This document shows, one piece after another, positions 26,573-32,954 of a stretch of 64,000 nt of DNA. The notes beneath the pieces were generated by a model that saw nothing but the letters and a program-made list of their open reading frames with translations, was not told where the DNA came from and did no database searches. The first letter of the stretch is position 1; every line of letters begins with the position of its first letter. Made by a program: the position numbers and the translations under genes. This stretch comes from Candidatus Gottesmanbacteria bacterium RIFCSPHIGHO2_01_FULL_40_15 (lineage in GTDB: Bacteria > Patescibacteriota > Microgenomatia > 2-02-FULL-39-11): positions 33,142-97,141 of the forward strand of contig MFJF01000012.1 of assembly GCA_001779115.1 (NCBI GenBank). The letters run 5' to 3'.

Positions 26573-26642
26573 CGCGGAGTAGTGTAAAGTTGCACAGGAG
26601 GCTCATAATCTCCTAGGCTGGGTGCGATTCCCAGCTCCGCAA
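26573..26642 (+). tRNA. atypical initiator-like tRNA (anticodon CAT), possibly degenerate
   Basis: Parsed as CGCGGAG-TA-GTGT-AAAGTT-GCAC-A-GGAGG-CTCATAA-TCTCC-TAGG-CTGGG-TGCGATT-CCCAG-CTCCGCA-A. There is a C1xA72 mismatch plus A73. The CTCATAA loop and the CGCGG...CCGCAA ends resemble bacterial tRNA-fMet. The T-loop has G55 and the anticodon stem lacks the 3 GC pairs. Confidence 0.4.
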
Positions 26643-26650
26643 CACATTCG

Positions 26651-28771: not shown

Positions 28772-29550
28772 AAATGATACCTTTGGGAACCAACGGGTTT
28801 TTCTCAAGTTTTGACCGGCAGACTGCCTGTTTCGTGCTTCCTTATAAGGACCGGCTTTTAATTTTTGATGCAGGGTCGGGACTTTTCCGGTTGGGAGAGC
28901 CTGAGGGAAAAAAATTATTAAGAAATGCCAAATACATCGATATATTTTTATCCCATTACCATTTTGACCATACCTTCGGTTTTTATGCCGCATTCAACCT
29001 TTTTGAAAAGAAAAATGTAACCGTTTATGCCCGATCAGACAGAAAAGTATTTTCAGATTTTTCTTTTCTTGAATATTTTCCGATTAATTATGATAAAGAA
29101 TTTATCAATTTCAGCTGGAAAGCCGTTGATAAAGGCACATATTCTTTAAGCGGATACAAAATGAGGATAAGGAGGCAGAACCACCGGGGCGAGGTCAGTT
29201 TAGCGTTTACAATTGAGTTTCCCGGGGGAAAAACAATTGCATATGTAACTGACGGCGAGCCGATACAGGAAAGCGTTGAATTTGTCAGAGGTGTTAATCT
29301 TCTTTTACATGAGCATGAACCCGGCAGCAAAGAAGCCAAAAGTAAAAAACTAGAAGATCATATCCGGGACGGGCATGTGACAACGGAAGGCGCGGCTTTG
29401 ATCGCCAGGGAAGCGGCAGTGAAAAGATTATATTTAATCCATCATAACCCCTTTCTTGATAATGAAAAGTTGGAAAAAGAATTGACGAAGATAAAACCGA
29501 TTTTTAAAGAAAGTAAACTTGCAAAAGATTTGGAAGTGATTGAGTTTTAA
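28768..29550 (+). CDS. MBL-fold metallo-hydrolase
   Basis: 260 aa. The HYHFDH (HxHxDH) zinc-binding motif is present. Confidence 0.7.
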   Translation: MKMIPLGTNGFFSSFDRQTACFVLPYKDRLLIFDAGSGLFRLGEPEGKKLLRNAKYIDIFLSHYHFDHTFGFYAAFNLFEKKNVTVYARSDRKVFSDFSFLEYFPINYDKEFINFSWKAVDKGTYSLSGYKMRIRRQNHRGEVSLAFTIEFPGGKTIAYVTDGEPIQESVEFVRGVNLLLHEHEPGSKEAKSKKLEDHIRDGHVTTEGAALIAREAAVKRLYLIHHNPFLDNEKLEKELTKIKPIFKESKLAKDLEVIEF

Positions 29551-30098
29551 AAAAAGCGGGGAACTCTTTTTTTGTAGGCCAAATACTCATTGCCAAAATA
29601 TTTTTCCAGAAGTATTTCTTCGATTAAGACGGCTTTTTTTATAAGAGTGAATAAGGGAATAACCAGAAGAACCAGATAACTAGACAGTGAAATTTCGATT
29701 CCGGCAAAGAAAAGCATAAGACCCAAATAAATAGGATTTCTGGTGTATGAAAAAGGACCGAAAGTCACCAACTTTTTTTGTTTTTTTACATCGTGCTGTG
29801 CCGGCGGACCCCAATTTACTTTCATGGTTAATTTAGCCCAGACGCAAAGAATCAATCCGGAAATATTAATGAGCAGTCCGCCAATTGAAAGATAAGTTAA
29901 ACGGACGGCAGGTAAATATGTCGAATTGATAATTGTGAAGATTTGGAGGTATAAAAGAAGACCGAGGGACCAAATAAAAAAAGTTCTGATTTTTTTCAGA
30001 TTATTCAAGTAATCTCTGAAGGATAAGGAAGAGGTAATCAACCAGATAAGCTGGAGTATAAGAAAATTTATAAGCAAGATAACTTTTATTCCGTTCAT
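29547..30098 (-). CDS. isoprenylcysteine carboxyl methyltransferase / phospholipid methyltransferase family membrane protein (start revised to the internal ATG at 30098)
   Basis: Beginning at MNGIKVILL, the product is a 4-5 TM protein ending YTRNPIYLGLMLFFAGIEIS...EEILLEKYFGNEYLAYKKRVPRF, an ICMT/PEMT signature. The 86 codons upstream of that ATG in the ORF track overlap a structured RNA on the opposite strand and look non-protein-like. Confidence 0.55.
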   Translation of the reverse strand: MNGIKVILLINFLILQLIWLITSSLSFRDYLNNLKKIRTFFIWSLGLLLYLQIFTIINSTYLPAVRLTYLSIGGLLINISGLILCVWAKLTMKVNWGPPAQHDVKKQKKLVTFGPFSYTRNPIYLGLMLFFAGIEISLSSYLVLLVIPLFTLIKKAVLIEEILLEKYFGNEYLAYKKRVPRFF

Positions 30099-30158
30099 GT
30101 TAAGATCATTATAACAATCTGTTTTGACATTTGTGGTATGATATACGGAATTTAATAA

Positions 30159-30428
30159 AGGCGATGATCCGGAGGGTTGGAACCGGGGAGCTGCCCCTTT
30201 AAAATCGGGGACGGAGGCGAAACCGTATCCTCCTTCGCTTAAGCGTCGGAGGACAAAGAAAGTCAGCAACGAGTGTTGCTTCTCAAAGTTCAGTACAAGC
30301 GCGAAGATAAAGCTCGTCAAGAATAAGCCCTGTACCGTCCGGAACGGGGGAAACAAGGTGGCACAGCGAAATGATATTTCGCCCTTGAATGTTCAGTTTT
30401 TATTTCTGAATATTTGAGGGCTTTTTTT
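30159..30428 (+). promoter_or_regulatory. T-box riboswitch leader (probable tRNA-Trp specificity) ending in an intrinsic terminator
   Basis: The T-box sequence AAACAAGGTGGCACAGCG sits at 30351-30368 (consensus AANNNGGGUGGNACCGCG). In the antiterminator, CAAGG (30354-58) pairs with CCUUG (30383-87) and flanks a 7-nt UGGCACA bulge and a GCGAAAU-GAU-AUUUCGC hairpin. A competing terminator pairs CCCUUGAAUGUUCAG (30382-96) with CUGAAUAUUUGAGGG (30406-20), followed by C-UUUUUUU. There is a GCGAUGA start and a Stem III-like CCGUCCGGAACGG. The only leader UGG outside the T-box is at 30178-80, followed by A. A TTGACA -35-like hexamer sits at 30124-29. Downstream genes are trpB2 and trpS. Confidence 0.6.
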
Positions 30429-30540
30429 ATGAAGAAAAAACTTAATCATTTTTTATGGGGAGTAGTTTATCCGAGAAGCGGATGGCGTTTTTGTTGGCGG
30501 CAAACAGTTTAACAGTTATTAAGTTTTAAAAATTTTAACT

Positions 30541-31851
30541 ATGAGAGCAAAAATAATATTGGAAGAAAATGAATTACCGGAAAATTTTATAAACATTAAT
30601 TATTACCTGAAAAAATTTTTGGGAAAATTACCCGATCCACCGCTAAATCCGGAAACGCATAAACCGGTTGGAGCAGCTGACCTGGAGGCTATTTTTGCCA
30701 AAGAATTAATAAAACAGGAAGCAACACTCAAGGAGGTTGTCGGTATTCCTGAGGAGGTCAGAAAGAAAATGTCGGGTTACCGGCCAACACCTTTGTTCCG
30801 GGCCGGGTCTTTGGAGAAAATTCTGGATACTCCGGCCCATATTTATTACAAATATGAAGGTGCAAGTCCGGTAGGCAGTCATAAAATGAATACAGCTCTG
30901 GTGCAGGCATATTATAACCGGAAGCAAGGAATAAAAACTCTGATAACCGAAACAGGTGCCGGACAATGGGGGTCGGCGTTAAGTTTGGCCTGTTTTTACT
31001 TCGGGCTTAAGTGTCTGGTATTTATGGTGAGGATTTCATATGACCAAAAACCTTACAGAAAGACTGTTATGAATATTTACGGAGCCGAAGTAAGACCGAG
31101 TCCGTCAGCGACAACCGAATACGGAAAATTGTTATTAAAAGATAATAAAAATCACGCGGGCAGCCTGGGAATTGCCATAAGCGAAGCTCTGGAATCGGTT
31201 GTCAAAGGAAGGGAAGCGAGATATTCTTTAGGAAGCGTTTTGAATCATGTCCTTTTACATCAGACAGTAATCGGACAGGAAGCAAAAAAGCAGATGGAGA
31301 AGACAGGCGAATATCCGGATATTATTATCGGTTGTTGCGGCGGAGGAAGCAATTTTGCCGGTATCGCCTTTCCTTTCCTGGCAGACGGATTGAAAGGAGA
31401 ACGGGAAAATACAAAATTCATCGCGGTAGAACCGGAAAGTTGTCCATCGTTAACCCACGGAGCATACCGGTATGATTTTGGTGATTCAGCACAAATGACA
31501 CCGCTTCTCAAAATGAAAACACTGGGAAGCGATTTCATTCCGTCACCGATTCATGCGGGAGGATTAAGATATCACGGAGTGGCACCTCAAGTTGCCTTTT
31601 TACATGAGGAAGGATTAATTGATTCCAAGACTTACGGACAGCCGGAAGTATTTAAGGCGGCAATAATATTTGCCAGAAGTGAGGGTATTATTCCCGCTCC
31701 CGAATCGGCACATGCCATTAAAGCGGCAATCGATGAGGCGATTAGAGCCAGAGATGAAGGAAGGAAAAAAGTTATCCTTTTTAATCTCTCCGGACACGGA
31801 TTGCTGGATTTGGGTGGATATGAAGGCTATCTGGCGGGACATTTAAAATAA
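30541..31851 (+). CDS. trpB: tryptophan synthase beta chain-like PLP enzyme, TrpB2 type
   Basis: 436 aa. PLP-lysine region PVGSHKMN (TrpB has GGAHKxN). It is TrpB2-length rather than the ~400 aa of TrpB1 and carries a glycine-rich CGGGSNFAG PLP phosphate loop. Confidence 0.75.
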   Translation: MRAKIILEENELPENFININYYLKKFLGKLPDPPLNPETHKPVGAADLEAIFAKELIKQEATLKEVVGIPEEVRKKMSGYRPTPLFRAGSLEKILDTPAHIYYKYEGASPVGSHKMNTALVQAYYNRKQGIKTLITETGAGQWGSALSLACFYFGLKCLVFMVRISYDQKPYRKTVMNIYGAEVRPSPSATTEYGKLLLKDNKNHAGSLGIAISEALESVVKGREARYSLGSVLNHVLLHQTVIGQEAKKQMEKTGEYPDIIIGCCGGGSNFAGIAFPFLADGLKGERENTKFIAVEPESCPSLTHGAYRYDFGDSAQMTPLLKMKTLGSDFIPSPIHAGGLRYHGVAPQVAFLHEEGLIDSKTYGQPEVFKAAIIFARSEGIIPAPESAHAIKAAIDEAIRARDEGRKKVILFNLSGHGLLDLGGYEGYLAGHLK

Positions 31852-31934: not shown

Positions 31935-32954
31935 ATGAACACAGTTAAAAAGAGAATTTTATCCGGAATAACGCCGTCGGGAGACGGTTCGCTACATATC
32001 GGAAATTATTTGGGAGCAGTCAGGCAATTTGTCGAGCTTTCTAAAAATAATGAATGTTTTTTGTTTGTAGCTGATATACATGCTCTGACGACAATTCAAC
32101 GAAAAGATGAATTGAGGGCAAATATTGAAACTCTAATTTTGAATGAGCTAGCTCTTTTGGGAGACCTGTCGAACATCATTTTTTTCAGACAGTCGGATGT
32201 GCCGATGCATACCGAACTTCAGACAATACTGAATAATATCACTCCTTTGGGACTTATTAAAAGAGCACATGCCTATAAGGATAAACTTGAGAAGGGAGTC
32301 GAAGAGGAAGAGGTTAACATGGGTCTTTTTTCTTATCCGGTACTGATGGCGGCTGATATTTTAATGTATAAACCTGATTTGGTACCGGTCGGCCGAGACC
32401 AGAAGCAGCATATTGAGATAACCCGGGATATAGCCGAGAGATTTAACAGGACATTTAAATCTAAAATCTTTCCATTGCCTGAGCCGTATATTCCGGAAGA
32501 GGCGGCGGTTATCATGGGAACGGACGGCAAAAGGAAGATGAGCAAGTCTTTGGGTAACTTTATCAGCATTTTTGAAGATGAGGCTGTTATAAAAAAACAG
32601 GTAATGTCAACATATACAGATCCAACCAGAAAGCACGTAACCGACCCCGGACATATTGAAGGGAATATGGTATTTAATTATCTGGATTTTTTCACAGAGA
32701 AGGAAGAGGTAATGATGTATAAGGAAAAATACCGCCAGGGGAAAGTGGCCGATGTGGAAGTTAAAAACTATTTGTTTGAATCCCTGATGAAATATTTTGC
32801 CCCGGCCAGAATGCGATATGAGGAGTTGAAGAATAGCCCGGATTCTGTCAAAAAGATTATACAAACCGGAGCGGAAAGAGCGAGGGAAGTGGCGGAAAAG
32901 ACAATAAATGAAGTAAGAGCAACAATCGGATTAACCAATAAATATTCTTTTTAA
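31935..32954 (+). CDS. trpS: tryptophan--tRNA ligase
   Basis: 339 aa class I aaRS. HIGN (HIGH) and KMSKS motifs. The N-terminal SGITPSGDGSLHIGNYLGA is typical of TrpS. Confidence 0.85.
   Translation: MNTVKKRILSGITPSGDGSLHIGNYLGAVRQFVELSKNNECFLFVADIHALTTIQRKDELRANIETLILNELALLGDLSNIIFFRQSDVPMHTELQTILNNITPLGLIKRAHAYKDKLEKGVEEEEVNMGLFSYPVLMAADILMYKPDLVPVGRDQKQHIEITRDIAERFNRTFKSKIFPLPEPYIPEEAAVIMGTDGKRKMSKSLGNFISIFEDEAVIKKQVMSTYTDPTRKHVTDPGHIEGNMVFNYLDFFTEKEEVMMYKEKYRQGKVADVEVKNYLFESLMKYFAPARMRYEELKNSPDSVKKIIQTGAERAREVAEKTINEVRATIGLTNKYSF

Follow-up and report, generated by a model that had tools for sequence, protein, structure and literature searches.

The 64,000-nt stretch of the Candidatus Gottesmanbacteria contig MFJF01000012.1 analyzed here (the window) contains on its forward strand a leader with the features of a T-box riboswitch (30149-30428). 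It precedes trpB2, encoding a TrpB-like pyridoxal phosphate enzyme, and then trpS, encoding a tryptophan--tRNA ligase (Table 1). An initial annotation, made from the sequence alone, had identified the downstream pair as a TrpB2-type tryptophan synthase beta subunit and TrpS, which is borne out by the profile matches NF009057 and TIGR00233. It also placed the host close to the candidate phyla radiation (CPR), and in agreement with this the TrpB2 protein of the window is 100% identical to the Candidatus Gottesmanbacteria protein P0001. The leader is found unchanged in locus L161 (GCA_001779255.1).

Table 1. Positions in the window of the leader elements, the small leader open reading frame (ORF) and the two regulated genes.
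Feature	Position	Strand	Basis
Promoter-like element: TTGACA (30124-30129), 7-nt spacer ending in TGG, TATGAT; TGGTATGAT resembles an extended -10	30124-30142	+	sequence
Ultrashort Stem I	30160-30192	+	RF00230 K-turn match and helix covariation
Mini Stem II, CCCC/GGGG with A-rich 9-nt loop UUUAAAAUC	30194-30210	+	RF00230 Stem II positions
Stem IIA, ACGG-AGGCGAAA-CCGU, F-box-like CCGUAU	30211-30228	+	RF00230 IIA/F-box positions
Variable inserted hairpin, CCUCC-UUCGCUUAAGCGUC-GGAGG	30229-30252	+	minimum-free-energy fold
Stem X, lineage-specific hairpin ACGAG-UGU ... AAG-CUCGU, with internal insertion in the window	30269-30317	+	covariation
Stem III hairpin, CCC..CCGU-CCGGA-ACGG-GGG, directly 5' of the T-box sequence	30328-30350	+	fold; RF00230 position
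T-box sequence AAACAAGGUGGCACAGCG	30351-30368	+	sequence; RF00230 alignment
T-box sequence and antiterminator	30351-30387	+	RF00230 alignment, fold, covariation
Helix A1, CAAGG/CCUUG	30354-30358 with 30383-30387	+	fold, covariation
7-nt bulge, UGGCACA	30359-30365	+	sequence, fold
Helix A2, GCGAAAU/AUUUCGC	30366-30382	+	fold, covariation
Intrinsic terminator, 16-bp hairpin, 9-nt loop, U7	30381-30428	+	folds
Small leader ORF, MKKKLNHFLWGVVYPRSGWRFCWRQTV*, 3 Trp in 27 codons	30429-30512	+	translation
trpB2, TrpB-like enzyme, first regulated gene	30541-31851	+	NF009057, 669.5 bits; TIGR01415, 636.3 bits
trpS, tryptophan--tRNA ligase, bacterial type, second regulated gene	31935-32954	+	TIGR00233, 309.2 bits; PF00579

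Related leaders were found by protein search, followed by contig look-ups for proteins clustering with P0002 and P0014. The initial annotation had suggested looking for the same leader in related genomes, and six distinct homologs were found upstream of trpB2 (loci L167, L168, L174, L176, L178 and L184). The TrpB2 proteins encoded at these loci are 70-75% identical, and one of the genomes is annotated as Candidatus Gottesmanbacteria. Full-length sequences are available from L167, L168 (identical in L172), L174 and L178 (one single-nucleotide polymorphism (SNP) in L179, identical in L180), and the L176 and L184 sequences lack the 5' end. A strain variant, L162, differs by three SNPs, located in unpaired positions or changing a G-U pair to A-U. 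In other genomes the leader is preceded by unrelated genes; it travels with trpB2.

The near-consensus T-box sequence, the helices A1 and A2 and the UGGCACA bulge were all present where the initial annotation had located them. It had also described a competing 15-bp terminator followed by seven U residues; the hairpin and the U-tract are there (U7 at 30422-30428), but the stem, formed by 30381-30396 and 30406-30421, has 16 bp including G-U pairs. The minimum-free-energy structure of RNA cut after A1 matches the bulged antiterminator exactly (-10.1 kcal/mol), whereas the full sequence folds to the terminator (-23.8 kcal/mol), which is about 14 kcal/mol more stable. This agrees with the competition described in the initial annotation. 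Since the 5' arm of the terminator overlaps the 3' strands of A2 and A1, the two folds are mutually exclusive. The homologs fold likewise, giving the antiterminator when cut and an equivalent terminator hairpin in every one, with a run of six to eight U after the hairpin in 6/7 leaders and a weaker UUAUUUAUUU in L167. A generic terminator scan missed the site because its loop limit is 8 nt, whereas the loop here has 9 nt.

The specifier could be assigned as well. A UGG triplet followed by A had been reported, and direct reading of the sequence locates it at 30178-30180 with A30181 next to it. It had been placed on the 5' side of the first helix, but alignment to the Rfam T-box model RF00230 puts it in the apical loop of an ultrashort Stem I, at the 3' end of that loop. 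This element consists of a K-turn, a 4-5 bp helix, (U)CCGG/CCGG(G), and a 10-nt apical loop, AGGGUUGGAA. The K-turn strands (5' GGC-GAU-GA and 3' GA-GCU) match the K-turn positions of RF00230 at the sequence level. A reduced Stem I as in the ultrashort actinobacterial T-boxes had been proposed as an alternative to a canonical one. With UGG-A in the apical loop, the problem of Stem I raised by the initial annotation is settled by this alternative of its own.

The UGG-A sequence is invariant in 5/5 full-length homologs, so that the codon is always followed by a purine, with Trp genes downstream. Besides AGGGUUGGAA, the loops AAGGUUGGAA, GUGGAUGGA and AUGGUUGGA were found, all ending in UGGA. The helix that carries the loop occurs as CCGG/CCGG, CCGAC/GUCGG, CCCAGG/CCUGGG and CCGGC/GUCGG, and the C-stem of the K-turn covaries as well (AGC/GCU versus ACC/GGU). 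As a separate observation, two leaders have a hairpin inserted in the 3' strand of the K-turn (L167 1985-2005, UCCCCCGAUUUAAUCGGGGA; L178 846-866, GCCAAGUCAGACUUGGC), giving a three-way junction.

Specificity for tRNA-Trp is also indicated by the antiterminator bulge. Bacterial tRNA-Trp has G73 as an established identity element. The UGGC of the bulge, which is invariant in 7/7 leaders, predicts a tRNA with G73, and the one CPR tRNA-Trp inspected, a bacterial-type tRNA encoded in the related locus L090 (659-731), has anticodon CCA and G73. The Trp specificity claimed at the outset is supported by these data, and a UGGC-to-G73 match presumably exists in this organism too. UGGU bulges occur in L017, together with a UGG specifier, and in a leader of L090 to which no specifier could be assigned; the rule linking bulge and discriminator base is therefore not strict.

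The initial annotation had asked for covariation supporting the antiterminator in homologous leaders. Compensatory changes were found there, and in Stem I and Stem II as well. For the antiterminator (seven sequences, hand-extracted helix arms), 92% of the cells are paired and 6/11 pairs show double-sided changes, in 14 cells. This covariation score was reached in 0/500 shuffles, and sliding the register reduced pairing to 25-54%. For the 5' module, a MAFFT alignment of the near-complete sequences gave 96% paired cells and 6 double-sided pairs, and hand-extracted arms gave 99% and 7, with 0/500 shuffles reaching the score in either case. Helix A1 occurs as CAAGG/CCUUG and UAAGG/CCUUA, and A2 differs in almost every lineage. 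With RNAalifold on an unguided MAFFT alignment of the discriminator, A1 was recovered and the length-variable A2 was misaligned; the arms were extracted by hand because MAFFT misaligns A2, whose loop lengths differ. The UGGC of the bulge and the UGGA of the loop remain invariant while neighboring positions vary. Covariance model R1, built from the 5' module, scored these leaders at 53-101 bits and found nothing else convincing in 1.24 Mb. One extra match (L167 5805-5887, 21.5 bits, E = 0.054), upstream of trpS, was rejected as a member since it lacks the T-box core.

In a permissive search, positions 1-219 of RF00230 aligned to 30155-30389 with 36.8 bits (E = 1.2e-6 when 551 nt were searched, 1.4e-4 for the 64-kb window as a whole), and this was the sole T-box match in the window. 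It covers the K-turn, Stem II, Stem IIA with the F-box, and the T-box sequence with the antiterminator. The score is low because the 74 model positions of distal Stem I, above the first helix, are replaced by 8 nt in the window. Of the T-box model match that had been suggested as a check, the significance and the full length were thus obtained, but the score stays below the gathering score.

The region between the specifier and the T-box sequence shows both conserved and lineage-specific elements. The S-turn positions of Stem II in RF00230 are deleted or substituted in the window alignment, and Stem II comprises 3-6 bp across the leaders with compensatory variants CCCC/GGGG, CACA/UGUG, UCCC/GGGA and ACC/GGU. 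Stem IIA is invariant in all homologs and therefore gives no covariation evidence either way; its F-box reads CCGUA(U/A/C) or CCGUUA. Of the candidate partners for a Stem IIB that were compared by eye, among them UUCGCU at 30234-30239 in the window and, within Stem X, the UGU and the 3' strand, none is consistent across the homologs. The inserted hairpin at 30229-30252 is absent from L168, L174, L176 and L178, and a near-identical copy occurs elsewhere in the L184 leader; it is probably dispensable or mobile. Stem X, between Stem IIA and Stem III, has the form [5 bp]-UGU-[3 bp]-loop-[3 bp]-GAG-[5 bp], and its arms covary as ACGAA/UUCGU, ACAUG/CAUGU and GCAAG/CUUGC (L168, L174, L176, L178, L184 and L090). 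Its UGU, the candidate for the IIB partner, may pair with RCR bases of the Stem IIA loop. The Stem III region differs in the homologs and is larger there.

We consider it likely that the leader is a functional tRNA-Trp-responsive T-box that controls trpB2-trpS by transcription attenuation. The elements, the alternative folds, the covariation among homologs, the gene identities and the T-box model match were computed here; we infer tRNA binding, charge sensing and readthrough, as well as whatever part Stem II, Stem X and the leader ORF may play. Through its anticodon CCA, tRNA-Trp would pair with the specifier UGG in the apical loop, stacked on A30181, and the tRNA would presumably be held also by the mini Stem II, Stem IIA with its F-box, and Stem X. 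An uncharged tRNA could pair through its 3'-terminal G73-C-C-A with UGGC at 30359-30362, stabilizing the antiterminator and allowing readthrough. With charged tRNA, the more stable terminator hairpin and U7 would form and transcription would stop. The 3' arm of the terminator carries GAGGGC, which resembles a Shine-Dalgarno sequence and lies 8-9 nt before the AUG of the leader ORF; through its GAGGG the switch may also gate translation of this ORF. A secondary translational effect of the hairpin on the small ORF is possible, but not a universal one, since the ORF is far downstream in L167, L176 and L178.

Several observations weigh against this interpretation. The RF00230 score does not reach half of the gathering score of 93, and at the gathering threshold Rfam reports in the window two tRNA-Met genes and no T-box. 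Even at E <= 0.1, RF00230 reports just 1/6 of the homologs searched (L168, 31.4 bits), which means that this group of leaders is largely overlooked by standard annotation. A distal Stem I, with the AG bulge and distal loop whose interdigitated T-loops form the platform that stacks on the tRNA elbow, was found neither in the window nor in any homolog, and transcriptional T-boxes "generally require" a long Stem I platform, for fast tRNA capture (PMC7583486). No S-turn is recognizable in Stem II, and inspection of the rest of the leader for S-turn or elbow-platform motifs (AGAGA and GAA/AGUA) revealed none. The 3' trinucleotide of the bulge is ACA, AAC or AAA and not the conserved ACC. The window holds no tRNA-Trp gene, its only tRNA genes being the two for tRNA-Met. 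Finally, the covariation set comprises 5-7 sequences, and two of the alignments (labelled A2 and A3) were hand-extracted with the structure in mind.

The small leader ORF starts directly after the U-tract. It contains the hairpin UCCGAGAAGCGGA followed by CGUUUUUGUU, and a weak terminator-like site at 30467-30485 is made up of a 7-bp hairpin and CGUUUUUGUU. The leader-ORF region has no significant overall structure (z = +0.71), and no convincing terminator follows the ORF. Its VYPRSGW sequence is shared with the Trp leader peptides of the CPR trpB2 attenuators in L002, L082, L085 and L181.

These data allow other explanations. The switch could be mainly or only translational, the hairpin acting as a sequestrator of the GAGGG of the small ORF. 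Expression of trpB2 would then depend on translation of this ORF, as trpB2 itself has no evident Shine-Dalgarno sequence; none is present in the window, L168, L176 or L178. Such an arrangement would agree with the ultrashort Stem I, since apical-loop specifiers have so far been described for translational T-boxes. It would also agree with the small-ORF AUG lying right after the U-tract in the window, L168, L174 and L184, with the purine-rich arm 8-9 nt upstream. On the other hand, the six to eight U after 6/7 hairpins are the signature of an intrinsic terminator and would be needless for sequestration. In L167, L176 and L178 another 150-300 nt precede the conserved small ORF, which places its ribosome-binding site outside the hairpin, and an AAGGG-like 3' arm is imposed anyway by the T-box consensus CCCUU. 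We therefore regard a translational switch as improbable. A more far-reaching proposal, which we put forward only tentatively and consider rather doubtful, is that Gottesmanbacteria-like CPR bacteria have a distinct minimal class of transcriptional T-box, in which tRNA-Trp is captured fast enough for co-transcriptional control without platform or S-turn, lineage-specific elements act as substitutes, and the switch operates in series with a Trp leader ORF that has its ribosome-binding site in the 3' arm of the terminator. The substitutes would be the A-rich loop of mini Stem II, the UGU/GAG internal loop of Stem X, or the K-turn hairpins, and the whole would be a two-tier sensor in which tRNA charging is read by the RNA and then by the ribosome.

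That the T-box is a relic without tRNA sensing, with trpB2-trpS either under Trp leader-peptide attenuation or unregulated, is very unlikely in our view. In favor of a relic, the leader lacks platform and S-turn and has no ACC in the bulge, the closest CPR relatives control trpB2 by a TrpR-like gene, Trp-rich leader peptides and terminators, and a homologous leader ORF is retained in the window. However, compensatory changes in four helices and the invariant UGGA and UGGC, across lineages with TrpB2 proteins only 70-80% identical, indicate purifying selection on the RNA, and a decaying T-box with an intact terminator would simply silence the operon. The leader-ORF region also lacks a convincing terminator or alternative structure of its own. 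The probability is close to nil that the region codes for an N-terminal extension of a methyltransferase encoded on the minus strand, its likeness to a T-box being coincidental. The overlapping ORF (29547-30356) is open from a TTG at 30356, and the gene callers vary in the start they select, giving proteins of 183 to 269 amino acids, of which some are at 236-269. Others chose the 183-residue version that starts at the ATG at 30098, and this version spans the family profile, with residues 49-182 corresponding to profile positions 54-186 of 190. Furthermore, the covariation is of the RNA type and not of the codon type, and the genes flanking the homologous leaders upstream are entirely different. 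Since the 183-residue protein is complete and the flanking genes elsewhere are unrelated, the extension is an ORF artefact with no conserved coding role, a concern that had been raised in the initial annotation.

Upstream of the leader, the sequence TTGACA-N7/8-TAT(G/T)AT, with TG before the second hexamer, is found in the window and also in L167, L168, L174 and L178. From its sequence, the element at 30124-30142 may act as a promoter; a generic sigma-70 scan was silent because the spacing between the hexamers is 7 and not 16-18. This spacing is odd. Either the promoter is of the extended -10 type and the conservation of TTGACA is a coincidence, or TACAAT, which occurs 19 nt past TTGACA in L167, L174 and L178, is the real -10.

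Just 5' of trpB2, several loci have a small ORF with the core (N)Y(F/Y)YLKW(R/Q), e.g., MEKIINYFYLKWRN, MTILTYFYLKWRRKL and MEKHEFYYLKWRIW. Such ORFs were found in L168 (2410-2454), L174 (1196-1300), L176 (349-405), L177 (1391-1435), L178 (1405-1452) and L184 (240-296), i.e., in T-box loci and in the leader-peptide locus L177, and the ORF of the window is of the YPRSGW type. Conservation of the YLKW amino acid sequence, and not only of its single Trp codon, suggests that the ORF has a coupling function or encodes a regulatory nascent peptide. Periodic repeats of 7-8 nt separate the small ORF from the trpB2 AUG; they are located at 270-340 in L184 (UAGUGUU twice, UAGUGGU, UAGUGAC, UAGUUAU), at 1440-1480 in L178 (AAGUUAU / AAGUUGU, four to five copies) and at 30505-30530 in the window (AGUU, three copies). 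A conserved GUUAUUAAU(G/A)UUUAA follows the repeats and precedes trpB2. The repeat array may be a target of an RNA-binding protein.

In related CPR genomes trpB2 is regulated in three ways: by a T-box, by a TrpR-like protein together with a leader-peptide attenuator, and by leader peptides alone. In the genome and metagenome collections, the closest trpB2 loci (L001-L006 and L082-L091), which are Roizmanbacteria-, Levybacteria- and other Patescibacteria-like with 60-71% identity, contain no T-box except for a divergent T-box-like leader in L090. An alternative layout occupies the 300-600 nt 5' of trpB2 in L001-L005, L082, L083, L085-L089, L091 and L181-L183 (e.g., L002 3560-4000). A promoter bearing the palindrome TACTAGTA, which resembles a TrpR operator, is followed by a TrpR-like gene of about 80-100 amino acids, matching Pfam Trp_repressor (PF01371) in L181-L183 and sharing the motif ...GLPHQEIARRLKVGVATVTRGS... 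in the others. Next come a Trp-rich (WW) leader peptide, such as MKNKMNLKKWWTCQLW or MKKYSYKNWWQKVYPRSGWLL, and a terminator consisting of a hairpin and a U-run. This layout is classic ribosome-mediated trp attenuation in Patescibacteria, swapping with the T-box at one locus; neither a TrpR-like gene nor the TACTAGTA operator was found in the window. The three modes of control are a compact case of regulatory module replacement in reduced genomes.

The L090 leader (404-733) is T-box-like, with 23.3 bits for RF00230 and the bulge UGGUACA. Its terminator ends 8 nt before the tRNA-Trp gene, followed by a ParB_N-like ORF and trpB2. This T-box may control the gene of its own ligand, in which case the U of the bulge would form a wobble pair with G73. 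The same locus has a group I intron (RF00028, 62.5 bits) in the anticodon loop of another tRNA gene (59-248), whose 5' half closely resembles that of the tRNA-Met gene of the window at 26573-26643. A ParB_N-like protein of about 130 amino acids is encoded repeatedly beside or overlapping trpB2 in CPR trpB2-trpS loci (L176 1762-2160, L178 2808-3206, L182 2808-3197, and upstream of trpB2 in L006 and L090); it is absent from the window. In several relatives the gene after trpB2 encodes a fusion of 497-660 amino acids between a TrpS/TyrS-family synthetase and a tRNA_edit (YbaK-like) domain, as in L172 (2285-3808), L175 (2892-4311) and L177 (3012-4308). In L175 a second class Ib synthetase gene lies upstream.

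The pairing of gene and regulator is ordinary, since canonical Trp T-boxes precede trpB2 in other phyla. With scores of 96-126 bits, above the gathering score, they were found in Dictyoglomaceae (L017, 126 bits), Chloroflexota (L007, L026 and L047) and Bacillota (L044). What is unusual is the reduced architecture and the phylum. Like class I T-boxes (RF00230), the leader has a K-turn, a specifier followed by a purine, Stem IIA with an F-box, Stem III, a 7-nt UGGN bulge, and an A1/A2 antiterminator that competes with an intrinsic terminator and U-tract; the trpB2 target and the UGG specifier are shared as well. It differs from this class by lacking the whole distal part of Stem I, where class I leaders have an internal specifier loop containing an S-turn, an AG bulge and a distal loop. 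Furthermore, Stem II is a 3-6-bp hairpin without GAA/AGUA, the bulge lacks ACC, and Stem X is additional.

Apical-loop specifiers are known from the short Stem I of the translational ileS T-boxes of actinobacteria, which depend on a Stem II S-turn (PMC7583486). These ultrashort T-boxes of Mycobacterium and Nocardia, with structures 6UFG and 6UFM, are attributed to Sherwood et al. 2015 (PMC7583486). The leader shares with this class II the specifier and purine in the apical loop, the missing platform, a retained Stem II/IIA-B region, and the presence of insertions, both in A2 (e.g., the long A2 in L168) and in the region of Stem III. Class II leaders have no terminator and act by sequestering the Shine-Dalgarno sequence of their target gene, whereas the window has a 16-bp hairpin and U7 located 113 nt before trpB2. 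The Stem II S-turn on which class II depends, a string of five purines that clamps the codon-anticodon duplex, is not recognizable in the window leader. Class II is Ile-specific and actinobacterial, whereas the leader is Trp-specific and from another phylum. It shares the T-box discriminator but fits neither the Rfam class I model nor the class II definition.

The glyQS T-boxes of Bacillus and Geobacillus are also naturally reduced and transcriptional, so not all modules are obligatory. They lack Stem II and Stem IIA/B, but their Stem I is long and keeps the elbow platform; in the window leader the reverse is found. With the trpL-type attenuators of E. coli, in the CPR versions from Roizmanbacteria- and Levybacteria-like loci, the window ORF has the VYPRSGW core and the Trp codons in common, but it has no convincing terminator or antiterminator and lies behind a T-box instead of a TrpR-controlled promoter. 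Among the open-access papers searched we found none linking T-boxes to CPR or Patescibacteria, which is a weak negative. The leader would extend T-box riboswitches to the candidate phyla radiation, in the Microgenomates group. If functional, the leader, in which an intrinsic terminator is paired with an ultrashort Stem I, would define a smaller minimal tRNA-sensing unit and offer a natural test of the view expressed in PMC7583486.

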